Source of the DNA: Gemmatimonadetes bacterium 13_1_20CM_4_69_16 | GTDB lineage: Bacteria; Gemmatimonadota; Gemmatimonadetes; Gemmatimonadales; GWC2-71-9 | Direction of reading: 5' to 3' | Assembly (NCBI GenBank): GCA_001919865.1 | Contig: MNIR01000051.1 | Span: 91,920 to 155,919, forward strand | DNA length: 64,000 nucleotides | Shown here: piece after piece, positions 48,284-58,351 of the stretch | Position numbering within the stretch: position 1 is the stretch's first letter | Layout: every line of letters begins with the position of its first letter | Notes under the pieces: model-generated | What the model was told of the DNA's origin: nothing | Databases searched by the model: none | Seen by the model: the letters and a program-made list of their open reading frames with translations, nothing else | Translations under genes and position numbers: made by a program

Positions 48284-49247
<964 letters not shown>

Positions 49248-49275
<28 letters not shown>

Positions 49276-49514
49276 CGAGCGAACCGCACGACGTCCTCGA
49301 CCGGCGGCACGGCGGCTTCATCGCCGTACGCGGTGAGCATGCGCCAGCGCAGGTAGTCGCGGGGTGGCAGCGGGAGGAACGGGGGGCGGCGGTACCAGTC
49401 ACGCGCCCGGAAGCTCCACGTGAGGCGCAGCAGGTCGAGCGCGAGGCGCGGGTGAGCGGCGGCTCGGAGCGCGAGGCGCACGAACAGCGTCGACCAGGTG
49501 GCGGGAGGCGACAT
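49248..49514 (-). CDS. Hypothetical small Arg/Trp-rich protein (88 aa)
   Basis: Last 88 codons of the antisense track ORF 49248..50912, from the ATG at 49514. It fills the otherwise empty 300-nt gap upstream of queG and overlaps the queG start by 28 nt. Confidence 0.35.
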
Positions 49515-49574
49515 GCGACTCAATCTACCCCGAGACGTGTCGACCGTGCTTTTCCTCCTGTATATTGACCGCCT

Positions 49575-50756
49575 ATGACGCTCGCAAGCGGCCTGAAGAC
49601 CGGCCACCAGACCGCGGCGCATCGGCTCGCCCGCTACCGCAGCGAGTTCCCGATCTTCCGGGACCAGATCTACCTCAATACTTGCTCGCTCGGCGCGCTG
49701 GGCGACCGCACGCGCAGGAAGGCCACGGAGTTTCTCGACCTGTGGCAGGCCCGGGGGGCAGCCGCGTGGTACGACGTCTGGTGGGCCGCGCTCTCGGAGC
49801 TGCGGGAGCGCTACGGCCGGGTGATCGGTGCGGGGCCACAGGAAATCGCGCTCGCGCCCAGCGTCTCGGTGGCCCTGTCGGTCGTCGCGGAGTCGCTCGA
49901 CTATGCGCGTCGGCCCAAGGTGGTGGTGACGTCGCTCGATTTCCCGACGATCGCCTACCAGTGGCTCGCCAAGCGGCCCCGCGGCATCGAGCTCGTGGTG
50001 GTCGAGAGCCCCGACCAGGTGTCCGTGCCGGTCGAGGCGCTCGCTCGCGCCGTGGACGCCCGGACCGCGCTGGTCGCGACCTCTCACGTGTATTTCACGA
50101 GTGGCGCGATCCAGGATATCCGCGCGGTGGCGGCCGCGGCCCATGCGCAGGGCGCCCTCTGCCTGATCGACGCCTACCAATCCGTGGGACAGGTACCGGT
50201 CGACGTACGGGCGACGGAGGTGGACTTCCTCACCGCCGGCGGGCTCAAGTGGCTGCTGGGCGGCCCCGGCATCGTGCTGCTGTACGCGCGGGCCGAGCTC
50301 GCCCGGTCCCTCACGCCGGCGATCGCCGGCTGGTTCGGCCACAAGCGGCAGTTCGCCTTCGAGCCGCGATCGCTCGAGTGGCACGACGACGCCCGGCGCT
50401 TCGAGCTCGGCACGCCGTCCCTCGCCGCGATCTACGCGCAGCTCGGCGGACTGGACTACATCGAGGAGATCGGCGTGCCCGCGATCCGCGAGGTGACGGC
50501 GGCGCTCACCGAGGACCTGATCGCGCGCGCCCGGGCGATGGGGTTGCGGCCCAAGGTGGCGGCCCGGGCGGAGGACCGCTCGGCGATCGTGATGCTCCCC
50601 GCCGACGATCCGGCGGATCGGGTGCGCCACCTCACAGCCGCGGCGATCATCGCGGACGCGCGGCCCGGCCACGTCCGCCTCTCCCCATTCTTCTACAACG
50701 TGCAGGACGACCATGTCGCAGCACTCGAGCGGCTCGCAGCGCCAAGCGGTCACTGA
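49575..50756 (+). CDS. Aminotransferase class V-fold PLP-dependent enzyme
   Basis: 393 aa. 'YLNTCSLGAL', 'SHVYFTSGAIQDI', 'IDAYQSVGQVPVDV', 'FLTAGGLKWLLGGPG' (PLP-Lys). Confidence 0.8.
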   Translation: MTLASGLKTGHQTAAHRLARYRSEFPIFRDQIYLNTCSLGALGDRTRRKATEFLDLWQARGAAAWYDVWWAALSELRERYGRVIGAGPQEIALAPSVSVALSVVAESLDYARRPKVVVTSLDFPTIAYQWLAKRPRGIELVVVESPDQVSVPVEALARAVDARTALVATSHVYFTSGAIQDIRAVAAAAHAQGALCLIDAYQSVGQVPVDVRATEVDFLTAGGLKWLLGGPGIVLLYARAELARSLTPAIAGWFGHKRQFAFEPRSLEWHDDARRFELGTPSLAAIYAQLGGLDYIEEIGVPAIREVTAALTEDLIARARAMGLRPKVAARAEDRSAIVMLPADDPADRVRHLTAAAIIADARPGHVRLSPFFYNVQDDHVAALERLAAPSGH

Positions 50757-51459
50757 GGACGAGCGGCTCCTCACGCAGCTCCCGCGCGAGCGCCGCGCGT
50801 TCACGAAGACCGACTCCTGGCGCGTGCTCCGCATCATGGGAGAGTTCGTCGAGGGGTTCGACACGCTGTCCGACGTGTACAATGCCGTGACGATCTTTGG
50901 CTCGGCACGCACGCCGCCGGACGATCCCTACTATGAGAAAGCCGTCGAAACGGGCCGCCTGCTGGCCGAGGACGGGTTCCCCATCATCACGGGGGGCGGC
51001 CCCGGCATCATGGAGGCGGCCAACCGGGGCTGCCAGGAGGGGAACGGCCTGTCGATCGGATGCAACATCGAGCTGCCGTTCGAGCAGGGCCTCAACCCCT
51101 ACGTCGAGCGCGCGATCAATTTCCGGTATTTCTTCGTACGCAAGACGATGTTCGTGAAGTACTCGACGGCGTTCGTGGTTTTCCCCGGCGGCTTCGGCAC
51201 GATGGACGAGCTGTTCGAGGCGCTGACCCTGATCCAGACCGGCAAGGTCCGTCATTTTCCTGTGATCCTGTTCGGCGCGGCGTACTGGAAGGGGATGACG
51301 GACTGGCTGCGTGAGCGCGTCGTAGGCGAAGGGAAGATCGCCAGCACGGACCTCGCCCTGCTTCACACGACCGACACCGCGCACGAGGCGGTCTCCGTCA
51401 TCCGGCAGGCGCGGGAGCGCCGTACCCGGGAGCTGCCGGCGCTCGACCGCGACGGGTGA
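50713..51459 (+). CDS. LOG family (TIGR00730) Rossmann-fold nucleotide-binding protein
   Basis: '[16 protein letters not shown]', '[15 protein letters not shown]', '[21 protein letters not shown]'. The track start overlaps the upstream gene by 44 nt. Confidence 0.88.
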
Positions 51460-51463
51460 CGCC

Positions 51464-52603
51464 ATGACCACACGCAAAGACTTCTTGCGCGGCCCGCGCA
51501 TCGATCCGAAGCCGCTCACCGGCCGGGAGACGATCCCCGAGCTGGTGGACAACGCCTTTCTGGCCTACAACGCTGGCCGGCTCGCCGAGGGTTGTCGGCT
51601 GTTCACCGAGCGGATGCTCGAGGATGACGTGACCGTGGGGATGAGCCTCACCGGCGCGATGACGCCGGCCGGCCTCGGCATGTCCACGATCATCCCCCTG
51701 ATCGAAGCGGGGTTCATCGACTGGATCGTCTCGACCGGTGCGAATCTCTATCACGACGCGCACTTCGGCCTCGGGCTCTCGATGCACCGCGGCACGCCGT
51801 TCGCCGACGACGTGGAGCTGCGCGAGGAAGGCGTCGTTCGGATCTACGACATCTTCTTCGACTACGAAGTGCTGCTCTCCACCGACGCGTACATCCGGGA
51901 GGTATCGGCGGGCCCCGAGTTCCAGCGGTCGATGAGCACCGCCGAGTACCATTACCTGCTGGGCGGGTACGTCCTGCAGCGCGAGCAGGCACTCGGGATC
52001 TCACGGAAATCGGTGCTGGGCGTGGCGCATCAGTGCGCCGTCCCGATCTACACCTCCTCGCCCGGCGATTCCTCGATTGGCATGAACGTGGCGGAGCAGG
52101 CCCTGACGGGTTCGCAGCTGCGGCTCGACTCGAGCGCCGACGTCAACGAGACGTCCGCGGTCGTGTTTCACGCCAAGACGCACGGCGGCAAGAGCGGCGT
52201 CCTGATCATCGGTGGCGGCAGTCCCAAGAACTTCGTGCTCCAGACCGAGCCGCAGATCCAGGAGGTGCTCGGCATCAGCGAGAAGGGGCACGACTACTAC
52301 CTCCAGATGACGGACGCCCGCCCCGACACGGGTGGCCTCTCCGGGGCCACGCCCGCAGAGGCGGTGAGCTGGGGCAAGGTGGACCCCGACAAGCTGCCGG
52401 ACACGGTGGTCTGCTACCTCGACAACACGGTCGCTTTCCCGATCCTCGCCGCGTACGCGCTCGCCCGGCGAAAGCCACGACGCCTGAAGCGGCTGTATGA
52501 CCAGCGGCCCGACATGATGCGGGCGTTGACCCAAGCGTACCAGGAGGCGAAGGCGGACCGCGACGCGCGCGCGGAGGCGGCCACTGCCGGGCGCCGGCGC
52601 TAG
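51464..52603 (+). CDS. Deoxyhypusine synthase family protein (DHS-like / homospermidine-synthase-like)
   Basis: 379 aa. '[14 protein letters not shown]', '[12 protein letters not shown]', 'GGGSPKNF', 'EAVSWGK' (the conserved Lys region). Confidence 0.8.
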
Positions 52604-54104
52604 CGGGGCGGCAGCGGCGGCGCGGCGCGCGCCCGACGGCGCCGGGGCGTACGCGGCCTACGCCCTCGGACTGCTCACGCTCATCAATCTCCTCAACTAC
52701 ACCGACCGCAACGTCATCTTCGCGCTGTTCGAGCACATCAAACGCGAGCTCACGCTCTCCGACCAGCAGCTCGGCTGGCTTGGCTCGGCCTACGTCATCG
52801 TGCTGTCGCTCGCCGCCCTGCCGCTCGGCGTCATCGGCGATCTGCGCTCGCGCCGCGCGGTGATCGCGTTCGGGGTGGGTCTGTGGAGCGCCTTCACCGC
52901 CTTGGGGGCCACGGTCACCCGATTTTGGCAGCTGCTCGTCTGCCGCTCCCTCGTGGGTGTGGGTGAAGCCGGCTACGGGCCGGCGGCGCAAGCGCTGATC
53001 GCCGAGGTCTACCAGGGGCGGCGGCGCGCGTTCGCGATCGGGATCTACTCGGTGGGGATGGCGTTTGGTGGTGTGCTGGGCATCTGGCTGGGCGGAGTGC
53101 TCGCCGAGCGCTACGGCTGGCGGGTGGCGTTCGTGGTGATGGGTGTGCCCGGTTTCTTTCTCGCGATCCTTGCCTCGCGGCTGCGCGAGCCTCGGCAGCG
53201 GCCGCCGGCGCCGATCGCCACGACCGTGCGGCGGTGGCTGGAGCGGGGGTGGCGACAGGCGATGCAGTACGGCAAACCGCTGATCGGGCTCGCGCTCGTC
53301 GGGGCGGTGCTGAGCGGCCTACTGGACCTCTTCGCGGGCCTGCCGCCCGGGATCGAAACCGCGGTGTTCGCGGCGTGTGTGAGCGCCGGGATCGTCTGGA
53401 CGGTCGTGCGCCTCGTGCCCGCCGCCGTGCGGCGTACCACCGAGGCGACGGAGGTGGCGGCGACCGCGTTCGGTGAGTTTCTCCAGGCCGCCGCGACCGT
53501 GCTCCGCACCCCGACGCTGATCTGGATGTTCCTGGGCGGCGCGCTCGTGACGTTCGCCGTGAATGGCCTCATCGCCTGGGCGCCCAGTTTCATGCAACGG
53601 GCACACGGTCTGTCGGTCGCGGTCGTGGGCCGGCAGTTCGGCATATGGGGGCTGGCGGGCGGTGCGCTCGGGGGGCTGTTCGGGGGCCGGGTCGGGGACG
53701 CGCTGCTCGCGCGCTGGAGTGGGGGACGCGTGGTCGTGTCCGGGGCGGGGTTCGTGCTCGGCGGCCCGGTCTGCGCCGCGCTGCTGCTGGTCGACGAGCT
53801 ACAGCTGTTCGTGCCGCTGCTGTTCGCGACGTTCTTCCTCTATACGTGGTACAACGGACCCCTGTCCGCGGTGATCCTGGACGTGGTGCCGCCGGCCGTG
53901 CGGGCGTCGGTCATCGGCGCTTACGTGCTGTTCTCGCACCTCGCGGGCGACGCCATCGCGCCGCCGCTCATCGGCTACCTGTCCGACCGGTTCGGCCTGC
54001 GGCCGGCCATGTTGCTGCTGCCGACGGCGGGGGCGGTGGGGGGGCTGGTCATCTTGATCGCACTGACGACGGTGGGGCGGGACATGGCGAGGGTAAAGAC
54101 ATGA
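52584..54104 (+). CDS. MFS transporter (Spinster-like). N-terminal helix lacks a canonical start codon.
   Basis: The track ORF starts at GTG 52800. However, the same frame is open from 52530 and encodes a typical MFS TM1 / motif A region ('[43 protein letters not shown]'). The only start-like codon is CTG 52584, with GGAGG 6 nt upstream. Confidence 0.7.
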
Positions 54105-54133
54105 ATGCGGAATGCGGAGTGCGGAATGCGGAG
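54103..54133 (+). repeat. Heptanucleotide tandem repeat (GARTGCG x 4.4)
   Basis: GAATGCG GAATGCG GAGTGCG GAATGCG GAG. It begins inside the MFS stop codon and ends 5 nt before the ATP-grasp ATG. Confidence 0.9.
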
Positions 54134-54138
54134 TTGAA

Positions 54139-55137
54139 ATGGGAGGTCGACCCGCGCCGCGCCCTGACTGGGAGGACGCCGACTACAAGCAGGCGGTCGA
54201 GGCCAAAGTCGAAGAGGCGGAGTACGACGTGGCTCGCGCCTTGATGGCGAAGGGGCACGACGTCCTGATGGTCGGGGTCGCCGAGACGCTCGAGCCGGTG
54301 CTCGAGCGGCTCGCGAAGTTCCAGCCGAAGGTCGTCTTCAACGGCTGCGAGGCATTCCGAGGGCACGCGCGGCACGAGTACGGCCTCGCCGCGGTGCTCG
54401 AGATGCATGGGTACCGCTACACCGGCTCCTCGCCCACCGCCCTGCTGGTCGCCCGGAACAAGTCGCTCACCAAGAAGATCCTCGCGTACCACGGGATCCG
54501 GGTCCCGACGTTCGCCGAGTGCCATCAGGGGGAGAAGCCCATACGCCCCTCGGAGCTCCGGTTCCCGCTGATCGTGAAGCCACTGCTCGAGGATGCGTCG
54601 GTGGGGATCGCCCAGGCGTCCGTCGTGGAGAATGACGAGGACCTGGCCGAGCGCGTGAAGTTCGTCCACGAGAAATTCCGCCAGGCGGCGATCGTCGAGG
54701 AGCTGATCGAGGGCCGAGAGCTGTACGTGGGCTTAGTCGGGAACGAGAAGGTCCAGCTGCTGCCGATCATCGAAATGACGTTCGGCGAAGCGGAAGATGG
54801 GGAGCACCGCATCGCCACCTACAAGGCGAAGTGGGACGAGGAGTACCGCAAGCGCAAGAAGATCAAGAACGTGTTCGCCAAAGGTCTGTCCGACGAGTTG
54901 ACGGCGAAGATCGGGGACATCTGCACCAGCGCGTTTCACGCGCTGTGGCTGCAAGACTACGGGCGTGTCGACCTGCGTTTGACCCATGACGACGAGGTCT
55001 ACGTGCTCGAGGTGAATCCCAATCCGTTCGTCGCGTTCGAGCACGAGATGGCCAACGCGGCTGAGAAGGCCGGGATGGGCTACGACGACTTTATCCAGCG
55101 GATCGTGGTCGAGGCGCTGGAGCGCGATCATGGCTAA
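54139..55137 (+). CDS. ATP-grasp domain protein (D-alanine--D-alanine ligase-like family)
   Basis: ATG at 54139 (the alternative at 54112 lies inside the heptamer repeat). 'ARNKSLTKKILAYHGIRVPTF', 'FPLIVKPLLEDASVGI', 'IVEELIEGRELYVGLVGN', 'GRVDLRLTHDDEVYVLEVNPNP'. Confidence 0.82.
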   Translation: MGGRPAPRPDWEDADYKQAVEAKVEEAEYDVARALMAKGHDVLMVGVAETLEPVLERLAKFQPKVVFNGCEAFRGHARHEYGLAAVLEMHGYRYTGSSPTALLVARNKSLTKKILAYHGIRVPTFAECHQGEKPIRPSELRFPLIVKPLLEDASVGIAQASVVENDEDLAERVKFVHEKFRQAAIVEELIEGRELYVGLVGNEKVQLLPIIEMTFGEAEDGEHRIATYKAKWDEEYRKRKKIKNVFAKGLSDELTAKIGDICTSAFHALWLQDYGRVDLRLTHDDEVYVLEVNPNPFVAFEHEMANAAEKAGMGYDDFIQRIVVEALERDHG

Positions 55138-56140
55138 GCCGGCGGCGCGGCGGCGCCGGGAGGTGCCGACACCGGAGCTGCGCTGCCCGACCTGCGCCGC
55201 CGAGCTGGAGCGCTTCTGGGCATACTGCTCGAACTGCGGCCGCCGGCTGGAGTGGCGGGACACCACGAAGCAGACGGGGGCCGAGTGCTACTACTGCGGC
55301 TGGGTGGTCTCGGGCCGCTTCTCGTTCTGTCCCTGGTGCGGGCGCGACATCGCGGACCGGGAGTCGAGCCCCGAGCCGCTCAAGGCGCCGAAGGGGTTCA
55401 GCTATCATCGGCGCTGTCGCTGGGGCTGCGGCGGCGGCGTGATGTATCCCATGCGATTCTGCCCCTGGTGCGGCCGTCCCCAGAAGTGGCGCTACTGGGA
55501 ATTCCAGAACGTCTGTCCGCACTGCAGCAAAGGTGTCAACGATTGGATGGAGGTCTGTCCGTGGTGCGGGGAGGACGCCACCGGGCGCGACCTGATCCGA
55601 CAAGCGCTGCGCCGAGTACGCCAGCTCTTGGTGGTGGGGCGCCTCAAGGACTGGAACTACCGCGTGCTGCTGCGGCCCGGCGTGTCCGGTGTGACCCATC
55701 GCACGCCCAAGATCATCGAGATCGAGCGGCGCTACGTCACGGGCAAACGGCGGCGCGACGAGATCTCGTGGAACATGCTGACCGGGCTGATCCTGCACGA
55801 GCTGGGCCACTCGTTTCTCTATCACAACTGGTCGGTCACGCGCACGGGACGCTTCCGTCGCGCCTTCGGCGAGGTGCGCAAGGCGTACCGCGTGGCGGAC
55901 TCGAAGTGGGTCGACTTCGAGCGCCGCGGCGTGACCACCACGCTGCCGGATTTCGTGACCGCCTACGCGGCCACGCACCCACAGGAGGACTTCGCGGAAA
56001 CGTTCCGGTTCTACGTCGCCCGGCGTGGCCGGTTGCGGGAGTTGTTCGCCGAGTTCGGGCGCAAGCGCAAGGGCGTGCCGGTGTTCGAGAAATTTCTGGT
56101 GATACACGATTACATCAGGAGCCTGAGGGGGTGGCGCTGA
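55130..56140 (+). CDS. Protein with four tandem zinc ribbons plus a C-terminal HExxH putative zinc metallopeptidase domain
   Basis: 336 aa. Four CxxC-N12-15-CxxCG units ('CPTC..CSNCG', 'CYYCG..CPWCG', 'CRWGC..CPWCG', 'CPHC..CPWCG'), then 'LILHELGHSFLYH' and 'EDFAETFRFY'. Overlaps the ATP-grasp gene by 8 nt. Confidence 0.7.
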   Translation: MAKPAARRRREVPTPELRCPTCAAELERFWAYCSNCGRRLEWRDTTKQTGAECYYCGWVVSGRFSFCPWCGRDIADRESSPEPLKAPKGFSYHRRCRWGCGGGVMYPMRFCPWCGRPQKWRYWEFQNVCPHCSKGVNDWMEVCPWCGEDATGRDLIRQALRRVRQLLVVGRLKDWNYRVLLRPGVSGVTHRTPKIIEIERRYVTGKRRRDEISWNMLTGLILHELGHSFLYHNWSVTRTGRFRRAFGEVRKAYRVADSKWVDFERRGVTTTLPDFVTAYAATHPQEDFAETFRFYVARRGRLRELFAEFGRKRKGVPVFEKFLVIHDYIRSLRGWR

Positions 56141-56240
56141 CCAGGCCCGCTGCGCCACTGCAACCTTTCGGCCCGCCCATACATCCCACTCCGTAGCGCC
56201 CGGTTCTCATCCCTCACTGTTTCCGTCTCCCGAGGTCCCT

Positions 56241-57641
56241 ATGTCCCGCTGGCTGGCCGTCTTCCTTCTCATGGCGACAGGGCTCGCCGCGCAACAGCCG
56301 CCGAGCGCCCCGATGGACTCAGGCGCGGTCGCACGCGTTCTCGCCCTCCTCAAGACTTCCGACTCCACTGTCTGCGAGCTTGCGGGACAGGCCATCAGCA
56401 ACTCGTGGGGCTTCCCCTGGGAGCCGAGACTGTTGCCGACGCCCATGCCGATGCCCATGCCCACACCCATGCCGATGCCGATGGCGAGGCGCATGGGGAT
56501 CAGGGTGCCTCACATTCATGTACACGTGCACCACCCAGGGGACTGGCGTCGCGAGGACGCGACTATGTTGGGCGCGTTCCGCGCAGTGCTGCGCGACGAC
56601 AGCAGGTGCGTGCGGCACATCGCCGCGCGGGTGCTCGGCCGGGCGCGCTCGCCGGGGAGCTACGACGCGTTCCTCGCGCTATTGCGCGAGGCGAGCCCGG
56701 GCCTGCGAGAGACCGGAGCGCTCGGCCTCAGCGAGCTCGAGGACCGGCGCGCGCTGAGACCGCTCCAGGAGGCGCTGCGCGACCGGGATCCCGGCGTCCG
56801 CGCGATGGCGGCGCGCGGTGTGGGGGAAATCGCGGACTCGAGCTCGATTGCTGCGCTCGGCAAGCTGCTGGCGGACGACGCGATCCCGGTGCGGGAGGCC
56901 GCCGCGTGGGCGCTGGGCGAGATCGCAGGCACGCAGGCGATCGCGCCCCTGAGCCAGGCGCTGCGCGACCGCTCGCCGGAGGTGCGAGCGATGGCGGCCT
57001 GGGCGCTGGGCCAGATCGAGAGCCCGCGCTCCGTATCCGCGCTGGGCGACGCGCTGCGTGATCCCTCCCCCCGGGTGCGGCGCGCGACCGTCTGGGCGCT
57101 GGGACAAATCGCGGACGGGGACGCGGTCGACTTGTTGTTACCGCTGCTGCGTGACTCCGATTCAGACGTCAGAATGGCCGCCACGCACGCCCTGGGAGAA
57201 ATCGGGAGCCAGCGGGCGGTGCGCGGCCTCGGCACCCTGGTGCACGACGCGTCGCCTGAAGTCAGGCGCGCCGCGATCTGGGCGCTCGGCGACATTGGGG
57301 ACGGCAGCGCGCTCGAGGCATTGCAGGCCGCCCTCAAGGACGTCGACTCCGAGACCCGACAACTCGCTGCGTGGGCGCTGGGTGAGATCGGCAACGCCGA
57401 CGCGGTGGATCCCCTGGCGGCAGCCCTCAAGGACCGCGACGCAGAGGTGCGAGTGGCTGCGGCGTGGGGCCTGGGGCAGATCGAGAGCACCCGCGCGCGG
57501 GAGCCGCTCCGAGCGGCCCTCAACGACGAGGCCGGTGATGTGCAGGACGCCGCTCGCTGGGCGCTCGACCAGATGGGTGACGATGACGAGCGGCCGCTCG
57601 TGAAGACGCGGCCGCGCGTGCGGCTGAAGAGGCGGATCTGA
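56241..57641 (+). CDS. HEAT-repeat (PBS-lyase HEAT-like) protein with signal peptide and a Met/Pro/His-rich segment
   Basis: 466 aa. At least 9 repeats of the 31-aa unit 'D..VR..AAWALGEIG...A...L...L.D'. N-terminal 'LAVFLLMATGLAAQQ'. 'PTPMPMPMPTPMPMPM...HIHVHVHH'. Confidence 0.82.
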   Translation: MSRWLAVFLLMATGLAAQQPPSAPMDSGAVARVLALLKTSDSTVCELAGQAISNSWGFPWEPRLLPTPMPMPMPTPMPMPMARRMGIRVPHIHVHVHHPGDWRREDATMLGAFRAVLRDDSRCVRHIAARVLGRARSPGSYDAFLALLREASPGLRETGALGLSELEDRRALRPLQEALRDRDPGVRAMAARGVGEIADSSSIAALGKLLADDAIPVREAAAWALGEIAGTQAIAPLSQALRDRSPEVRAMAAWALGQIESPRSVSALGDALRDPSPRVRRATVWALGQIADGDAVDLLLPLLRDSDSDVRMAATHALGEIGSQRAVRGLGTLVHDASPEVRRAAIWALGDIGDGSALEALQAALKDVDSETRQLAAWALGEIGNADAVDPLAAALKDRDAEVRVAAAWGLGQIESTRAREPLRAALNDEAGDVQDAARWALDQMGDDDERPLVKTRPRVRLKRRI

Positions 57642-57655
57642 GAGCGCCTCCGCCG

Positions 57656-58351
57656 TCAGCCGGCGAAGCAGTAGGCGCAACCCTTCTCCTGGGCGCGGTT
57701 CACCGCAATTACGCCCGAGGGCACGACCACGACACCGGGGAGCAGGTTCGCTACCCATTCCTTCTTGATGGCATCGGCCTGCATTCCCATGTCCTTCGCC
57801 AACCGCATGCTGTTGAAGGTGAGGGCGATGTTGCACACCCCGATGAGCACGCCCTTGGCGAGCAGCTCGTCGGCGCCGATGCCGGGGATCGGCACCTCGC
57901 CTGGCTTGAGATGGAGCAGGGGATGGCGCACGGCAGGCCCTTTCGTGGCCCCGTCCGTGATCTTGAACGCCTCCCCGAACCGGTACTTCGACCACATGGT
58001 GTTCTCCATCGCGAACGGAATCCCCGAGTGTCGCAGCACGATCACGACGGTGTTGTCTGCATCCGTGGTGCCGTAGGTCTCGTTCGTGGTGTTGAGGAAC
58101 ACGCGCGCCCACCAGAACGCGAAGCCGTCGTTCGGCTCGGGGACGTCGTAGATCATCTTGTGCTTCCCGGTGATCTTGTTTAGCCACGCTTCGAACTCGG
58201 GGTTTCCGGCCGCGCCGGAAGTCGCGGACCGCGGCGTTGCCACAGCGGCGGATGGGGCTGCGAGGCCGCCCAGACCGAAGGCGGCGGCCCCGGCGGCGAG
58301 GCGTCCCAGGAATCCGCGGCGATGCGTCGTGTCGTTGGTCAGGTCTAACAT
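57656..58351 (-). CDS. Tat-signal DsrE/DsrF-like family protein
   Basis: 231 aa. Twin-arginine 'HRRGFLGRLAAGAAAF'. DsrE-like blocks 'KMIYDV', 'VVIVLRHSGIPFA', 'GVLIGVCNIALTFN', 'PGVVVVPSGVIAVNRAQEKGCAYC'. Assigned by pattern memory only. Confidence 0.5.
   Translation of the reverse strand: MLDLTNDTTHRRGFLGRLAAGAAAFGLGGLAAPSAAVATPRSATSGAAGNPEFEAWLNKITGKHKMIYDVPEPNDGFAFWWARVFLNTTNETYGTTDADNTVVIVLRHSGIPFAMENTMWSKYRFGEAFKITDGATKGPAVRHPLLHLKPGEVPIPGIGADELLAKGVLIGVCNIALTFNSMRLAKDMGMQADAIKKEWVANLLPGVVVVPSGVIAVNRAQEKGCAYCFAG

Follow-up and report, generated by a model that had tools for sequence, protein, structure and literature searches.

An overlapping gene pair for an ATP-grasp ligase and a four-zinc-ribbon hydrolase in Gemmatimonadota

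Two overlapping genes and their products

The window analyzed here, a 64,000-nucleotide (nt) stretch of contig MNIR01000051.1 from Gemmatimonadetes bacterium 13_1_20CM_4_69_16, carries two overlapping genes on its forward strand. The upstream gene (54139..55137, + strand) encodes a putative Ddl-like, non-Ddl ATP-grasp carboxylate-amine ligase, as judged from the list of open reading frames (ORFs), Pfam, NCBIfam, matches in the PDB and alignment. The downstream gene (55130..56140, + strand), identified from the ORF list, Pfam and homologue searches, encodes a 336-residue protein with a pI of 10, here called the hydrolase, in which four zinc ribbons precede a Peptidase_Mx (HExxH) domain. The two genes share the 8 nt ATGGCTAA (55130..55137, + strand), with the TAA stop codon of the ligase gene at 55135-55137; this overlap had already been described in a prediction made from the DNA sequence alone (the original prediction). 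The ligase ORF is open from 54112, and the start codon chosen in that prediction, ATG 54139, has a GGAG 5 nt upstream and gives a protein of 332 residues, most homologues having 330-338. Together, the genes appear to form a co-translated module that is specific to Gemmatimonadota and uncharacterized, and that joins known superfamilies in a new combination.

The original prediction had called the first gene Ddl-like, which agrees with its NCBIfam matches, with Pfam Dala_Dala_lig_C (PF07478, E = 8.3e-28) and with numerous solved Ddl/Van structures in the PDB (best E 2.6e-20). A true D-Ala-D-Ala ligase of the Ddl/Van type was nevertheless rejected, as the best NCBIfam Ddl/Van score, that of NF002378, reaches 132 of the 243 bits required, with all other models further below theirs, and the residues of the D-Ala site are replaced. 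In the family alignment (A4), which includes E. coli DdlB, the ATP/Mg2+ ligands K97, K144, E180, K215, R255, D257, E270, and N272 (DdlB numbering) are invariant. The D-Ala-site residues E15, H63, S150, Y216, and S281/L282 of DdlB are not kept (S150 is replaced by A, Y216 by W, and H63 by E), and the GGxSxE loop of Ddl is absent from the same alignment. Membership of the RimK family was likewise rejected, with scores of 36.3 versus 143.4 bits for TIGR00768 and 20.7 versus 21 bits for PF08443, and no RimK chain occurs among the PDB matches of the ligase at E <= 1e-3. Since the ATP/Mg residues are kept, the D-Ala-site residues are replaced and the Ddl and RimK models fail, the protein is plausibly a catalytically competent carboxylate-amine ligase of the Ddl/L-amino-acid-ligase branch of ATP-grasp enzymes.

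The closest relatives of the ligase outside Gemmatimonadota (~33% identity, E ~1e-40) are plasmid genes for unnamed "ATP-grasp domain-containing proteins". Such genes lie on plasmids pNGR234a and pTHIMO01 (loci L088 and L089), one beside a CapA/PGA_cap gene and the other in an amino-acid cluster with genes for a DABA transaminase, SbnA, an ornithine cyclodeaminase, and KamA; another outside relative is found near an MFS gene. These neighborhoods suggest an uncharacterized clade of amino-acid or poly-amino-acid ligases.

The hydrolase contains all the elements that the original prediction had listed for it, namely four zinc ribbons in the first ~150 residues, a HELGH motif, and a downstream EDFAETF. 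Eight cysteine pairs, starting at residues 19, 33, 53, 67, 96 (CxxxC), 111, 129, and 143, repeat the pattern CxxC...C(P)xC(G) four times within residues 1-150. On the + strand, they form ribbon 1 (C19, C22 and C33, C36; 55184..55237), ribbon 2 (C53, C56 and C67, C70; 55286..55339), ribbon 3 (C96, C100 and C111, C114; 55415..55471), and ribbon 4 (C129, C132 and C143, C146; 55514..55567). Among 28 homologues, 15 of the 16 ribbon cysteines are invariant and C19 is conserved in at least 90%. The ribbons match Pfam DZR, DZR_2, and DUF7575 above the cut-offs; PF10005, the usual N-terminal ribbon of Peptidase_Mx proteins, has no match in the hydrolase, which carries the DZR/DUF7575 type four times instead. 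The N-terminus is basic, with neither a signal peptide nor a transmembrane segment, and as no hydrophobic segment is present, the protein is predicted to be cytoplasmic.

The remaining part, residues 151-336 (55580..56137, + strand), is predicted to form a catalytic zincin-like domain on the basis of PF15887, an AlphaFold2 model, and Foldseek. PF15887 (Peptidase_Mx, clan Peptidase_MA) matches residues 214-297 with 46.1 bits against a gathering threshold of 27 (E = 5.3e-12). H223, E224, and H227 of the HELGH motif (residues 223-227; 55796..55810, + strand) would supply two zinc ligands and the catalytic base, and E290 of EDFAETF (residues 286-292; 55985..56005, + strand) is the likely third ligand, as in gluzincins. 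All four residues are invariant in three alignments (A1, A2, and A3) and across a set of 79 sequences that includes canonical Peptidase_Mx proteins. A full-length model built from the 28 close homologues was unusable (pLDDT 45) and was replaced by a model of residues 151-336 from the 79-sequence alignment (pLDDT 84.6, pTM 0.85), in which the active-site helix and the glutamate helix are both present and EDFAETF sits in helix 134-147 of the model. All the best Foldseek matches of this model come from zinc metalloproteases, namely anthrax lethal factor, PPEP-1, the minigluzincins, and BlaR1, a likeness at the level of the fold only (TM ~0.4, E ~0.1, 15-19% identity). The original prediction had proposed a zinc-metallopeptidase fold and named a different fold as an outcome that would count against it; profile and structure both point to the proposed one. 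A profile of the 28 homologues also weakly matches the solved Mx1-type lipoprotein 9urd_A (E = 0.0012). Assignment to the substrate import-associated lipoproteins (TIGR04549/Peptidase_Mx1) was rejected, with 26.7 versus 75 bits, 19.6 versus 25.6 for PF15890, and no lipoprotein signal.

Canonical Peptidase_Mx proteins with a PF10005 ribbon form a large, mostly proteobacterial family annotated as "zinc-binding metallopeptidase family protein", whose peptidase activity is labeled "putative" only. They share with the hydrolase a homologous domain (~25-30% identity) preceded by a ribbon and the invariant pattern H-E-x-G-H ... F-G ... Y-A ... (E/D)(D/N)(F/W)-A-E-(T/V)-F. However, they have a single PF10005 ribbon, an acidic pI of ~5, and no consistent ligase neighbor, whereas the hydrolase has four DZR-type ribbons, a basic domain with a pI of ~11, and a coupled ATP-grasp gene. 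The difference in charge is consistent: the catalytic domain of the window hydrolase has a pI of 11.3 and a net charge of +21, and all four-ribbon relatives examined fall between pI 9.3 and 11.3 (net +9 to +21), as against a pI of ~5 and net charges of -10 to -21 in the canonical domains examined. This basicity is not an effect of GC content, because the ligase of the same genome has a pI of 5.4. The charge reversal suggests that the catalytic domain binds a polyanion, which could be nucleic acid or a peptide or polymer of acidic character.

Distribution and genomic neighborhoods

Close homologues of both proteins come from metagenome-assembled genomes of Gemmatimonadales. An exhaustive HMMER search of 1.84 billion cluster representatives yielded only 505 sequences related to the hydrolase at E <= 1e-3 and 34 at E <= 1e-30, many of which are fragmentary, and the four-ribbon architecture is therefore taken to define a narrow family. 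In 80 species-representative Gemmatimonadales genomes with the hydrolase, the ligase gene lies directly upstream of the hydrolase gene in 71. Furthermore, the overlapping pair recurs in four unrelated neighborhoods (L081, L082, L095-L097, and L098), where all other neighbors differ; a protein of L095-L097 is annotated as Candidatus Palauibacterales, an order distinct from Gemmatimonadales. At most loci with a placeable start, the overlap measures 4, 8, 11, or 14 nt, and gene calls in the neighborhoods unlike that of the window overlap by 1-20 nt. Two frameshifted metagenomic gene calls (P0144 and P0145), in which the C-terminus of the ATP-grasp protein is fused to the zinc-ribbon protein, reflect the same adjacency. 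Because the pair stays adjacent and overlapping while every other neighbor changes, there is good evidence, drawn from gene order and sequence, that ligase and hydrolase constitute a two-gene functional unit. The co-occurrence that the original prediction had proposed to examine is thus present as adjacency, in 71 of 80 genomes and in four unrelated contexts over two orders, but it is not obligatory, as the other nine genomes have no ligase at the locus.

In L098 (4141-8173), which belongs to a complete 3.86-Mb genome, the pair is flanked on one side by a gene for Fpg (formamidopyrimidine DNA glycosylase) that extends into the start of the ligase gene and on the other by a UvrC_M-domain gene, the only DNA-repair context observed. 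Outside the phylum, two low-GC proteins (P0175 and P0179) have the whole four-ribbon architecture at 31-32% identity. The gene for P0179 (L084:1-4810, GCA_004196315.1) is preceded by three dynamin-like GTPase genes together with small ORFs that lack annotation. The relatives of the hydrolase also include a few HExxH domains that stand alone. A general linkage of canonical Peptidase_Mx to ATP-grasp or transglutaminase systems was rejected: the canonical gene in Eleftheria follows a transglutaminase gene, and otherwise there was none.

Possible functions and related systems

We tentatively interpret the pair as a ligase/hydrolase couple that acts on a polyanionic, amide-linked product, a reading held at clearly less than even confidence. 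Domain identities, intact catalytic motifs, overlapping adjacency, and reversed charge are observed; that the two enzymes share a substrate, in which direction they act, and that their target is polyanionic is inferred. The ligase would couple a carboxylate, activated as an acyl-phosphate, to an amine. The hydrolase would be a five-zinc cytoplasmic protein, with four structural ribbons and one catalytic site, whose HExxH...E gluzincin domain would cleave amide bonds, so that the ligase would build, and the hydrolase trim or remove, the same product. The exceptional basicity of the hydrolase domain suggests that this product or its carrier is polyanionic; candidates are acidic tails or polymers of amino acids and nucleic-acid-bound proteins. 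The four ribbons might dock the hydrolase on the target macromolecule.

Several observations weigh against such a couple. At the locus of nine of the 80 genomes (L032, L033, L034, L051, L057, L062, L070, L073, and L078), the ligase is missing, and the hydrolases of these genomes group together on a neighbor-joining tree that places one ligase-carrying locus (L039) within the group. These nine proteins retain HELGH, EDFAE, and all eight cysteine pairs, have lost no region, and differ from the ligase-linked hydrolases at three conservative positions only (P20T, R38K, and R161T). Their genes abut or overlap the MFS gene that precedes the pair in the clade of the window, with a 4-nt overlap in the five loci with a placeable start; the reciprocal case, with the ligase kept and the MFS gene missing, is found in L030 and L031. 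No ATP-grasp neighbor was found at the loci of P0175 and P0179, and canonical Peptidase_Mx genes show no consistent ligase neighbor (none in Sphingomonas, Tistrella, and Luteolibacter). By their neighborhoods, the ligase relatives outside the phylum belong to amino-acid or poly-amino-acid chemistry and not to evident protein tagging. Finally, the ligase copy in the window itself lacks its N-terminus (see the following section) which, if due to a real deletion, probably cripples the N-domain of the enzyme. Given the ligase-less clade and the distant and canonical homologues without ligase, the hydrolase appears to be an autonomous functional unit, with the ligase as its phylum-specific partner.

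The same observations bear on the possibility, itself somewhat unlikely, that the two functions are independent, with the hydrolase working on its own at nucleic acid or the ribosome, as a protease or a regulator (its ribbons and basic HExxH domain would follow a SprT/Spartan-like logic), and the ATP-grasp gene merely sharing its operon. Its persistence without change after clean ligase loss and the distant four-ribbon homologues without ligase fit this explanation, as do its strong basicity (pI 10-11), its higher conservation (63-64% identity in L081 and L082, compared with 52-55% for the ligase), and the position of the L098 pair between Fpg and UvrC_M-domain genes. However, the overlapping adjacency outlasts the turnover of all other neighbors in five contexts and two orders, which is unusual for unrelated genes; the DNA-repair context occurs only once, and Pfam gives no match of the hydrolase to the SprT or WLM families.

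A small-molecule pathway seems unlikely. Here, the ATP-grasp enzyme would make a dipeptide-like compound or an amino-acid/polyamine conjugate for export by the MFS protein, the matching amidase for recycling or self-protection would be the HExxH protein, and the products of the two genes further upstream, of the LOG family and deoxyhypusine-synthase-like (DHS), would supply or use the amine. This would suit the placement of the ligase in the Ddl/L-amino-acid-ligase branch and the gene clusters of its 33%-identity relatives, as well as the collinear order LOG-DHS-MFS-ligase-hydrolase in about 60 of the species genomes with its tight MFS-ligase and ligase-hydrolase junctions. In the clade of the window, such collinearity by itself could reflect shared ancestry. 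Against it, the pair occurs without MFS, LOG, and DHS genes in L081, L082, L095-97, and L098 and without the MFS gene in L030 and L031, four invariant ribbons and a domain of net charge +21 would be unexpected in a small-molecule amidase, and Rfam detected no riboswitch or other RNA in 49000-58000. An origin in ribosomally synthesized and post-translationally modified peptides, with the ATP-grasp enzyme macrocyclizing a ribosomal peptide and the HExxH protease removing its leader, is highly improbable: the general pairing of ATP-grasp enzymes with proteases in graspetide systems (reviewed in PMC8939145) is all that speaks for it, the best matches of the ligase are Ddl-type enzymes, and no third conserved gene, small ORF, or precursor-peptide gene lies beside the pair in any of the five contexts, on which ground graspetide membership was rejected.

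The nearest mechanistic precedent for a ligase/hydrolase couple is RimK/RimB, although both proteins of the present pair come from different families. The RimK ATP-grasp ligase is co-transcribed with the RimB protease, which trims the tail that RimK adds, and the system polyglutamylates ribosomal protein S6 (PMC7343187, PMC11957791). The likeness lies in the co-transcription of an ATP-grasp gene with a protease gene and in a substrate that belongs to a nucleic-acid machine and bears an acidic tail. In contrast, RimB is a retropepsin-like aspartic protease and not an HExxH enzyme, the RimABK system has no zinc ribbons, and the pair described here has no equivalent of RimA. The RimK-type relationship drawn in the original prediction did not hold at the family level, with both RimK models failing and the outside relatives of the ligase lying in small-molecule or poly-amino-acid clusters. 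That the pair is a functional analogue of RimK/RimB from other families, in which the ligase reversibly adds an acidic tail or polymer on a nucleic-acid-bound or ribosomal target and the basic hydrolase, held there by its four ribbons, removes it again, is a narrower proposal that we regard as quite improbable in this specific form.

Other known systems resemble the pair in part. Co-transcribed couples of a ligase and a hydrolase include VanA/VanX, CphA/CphB, and glutathionylspermidine synthetase/amidase. In the van operon, a Ddl-type ligase is paired with a zinc hydrolase that acts on a related dipeptide, and Ddl and VanA are also the nearest solved or named relatives of the ligase; however, VanX is an M15/LAS-fold enzyme without HExxH, no cell-wall context exists at our locus, and the D-Ala-site residues and scores fail. 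In the LysX/LysW system, the substrate of the ATP-grasp ligase is a small zinc-ribbon protein, and release of the product falls to a metallohydrolase at a later stage. Unlike LysW, which has an acidic C-terminal tail, the ribbon protein described here ends in ...RSLRGWR and is the hydrolase itself, and its ligase lies outside the LysX/RimK family. The M34 gluzincins (anthrax lethal factor and PPEP-1) and minigluzincins, the best matches of the model, have the same HExxH plus glutamate zinc site, but the hydrolase is not a member of these families by sequence. PADLOC models of anti-phage defense match neither protein, PHROGs gave matches at the level of the ribbons only, and literature searches on the function of Peptidase_Mx, PF15887, TIGR04549, and amidoligase-peptidase systems returned nothing specific.

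Experimental genetics is scarce in Gemmatimonadota, a phylum abundant in soil, and a two-gene module that extends over at least two orders offers a handle on their physiology. It would also give the large, uncharacterized Peptidase_Mx family its first functional context. Within this family, an acidic catalytic domain has become strongly basic and has acquired four ribbons, a change that presumably serves a new class of substrates. Should the two enzymes act on a common substrate, the scheme of writing and erasing an amide tag, known from RimK/RimB, would have arisen here independently. What is new so far is the combination of known superfamilies around a four-ribbon, charge-reversed Peptidase_Mx core, not a mechanism.

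Upstream genes and an intercistronic hairpin element

Upstream of the pair, the window contains the LOG-family (SLOG/"lysine decarboxylase-like") gene (50713-51459), the DHS gene, which starts 4 nt after it (51464-52603), and the MFS transporter gene (52800..54104, + strand), an operon neighbor of the pair in the clade of the window only. The LOG and DHS genes, possibly a polyamine-related pair, precede the MFS, ligase, and hydrolase genes in collinear order in about 70 Gemmatimonadales species and are not linked to the ligase and hydrolase genes in more distant genomes. A scan for promoters and terminators was uninformative in DNA of 70% GC.

Between the MFS and ligase genes, related loci carry a hairpin element that begins exactly at the MFS stop codon. 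Both arms are present in ~13 of 64 related loci, including L099:2950-3050, L002:4868-4975, L014:4865-4970, and L004:4580-4690, where they consist of heptamer arrays (GAATGCG, GATTGCG, or GAACGCG), each with a complementary arm, and form long, near-perfect hairpins; the hairpin of L099 folds with -72 kcal/mol (z = -7). Seven of the 25 consensus pairs show double compensatory changes, to which concerted evolution of the palindrome arms could contribute. On the 3' side of the element, the relatives have a G-rich stretch followed by the GTG or ATG start of the ligase. The element could be a site of processing, attenuation, or translation control.

The window copy keeps the left arm alone, a tandem array of 4.3 copies of GAATGCG detected with TRF (54103..54132, + strand), and lacks the loop and the right arm as well as codons 1-11 of the ligase. 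The missing N-terminus, VKIAVLFDTLH, corresponds to strand beta1, which all other homologues share with E. coli DdlB (compare L099:3060-3100). All homologues begin with (M/V)(K/R)(I/V)AV(L/V)FD; the window ligase begins with MGGRPAPRPDWED and is homologous to the family only from the proline encoded at 54163 onward, ATG 54139 lying in sequence derived from the half-deleted hairpin. The rest of the protein is essentially 100% identical to P0270 over 98% of its length. Either a recent hairpin-mediated deletion or an assembly collapse at the palindrome accounts for the missing arm and N-terminus, and the conclusions at the level of the family are independent of this ligase copy.

Downstream of the pair, a gene at 56241-57641 encodes a secreted-looking protein with many HEAT/PBS-lyase repeats and the low-complexity stretch PMPMPMPTPMPMP; because its position varies among related genomes, this gene is placed outside the module.

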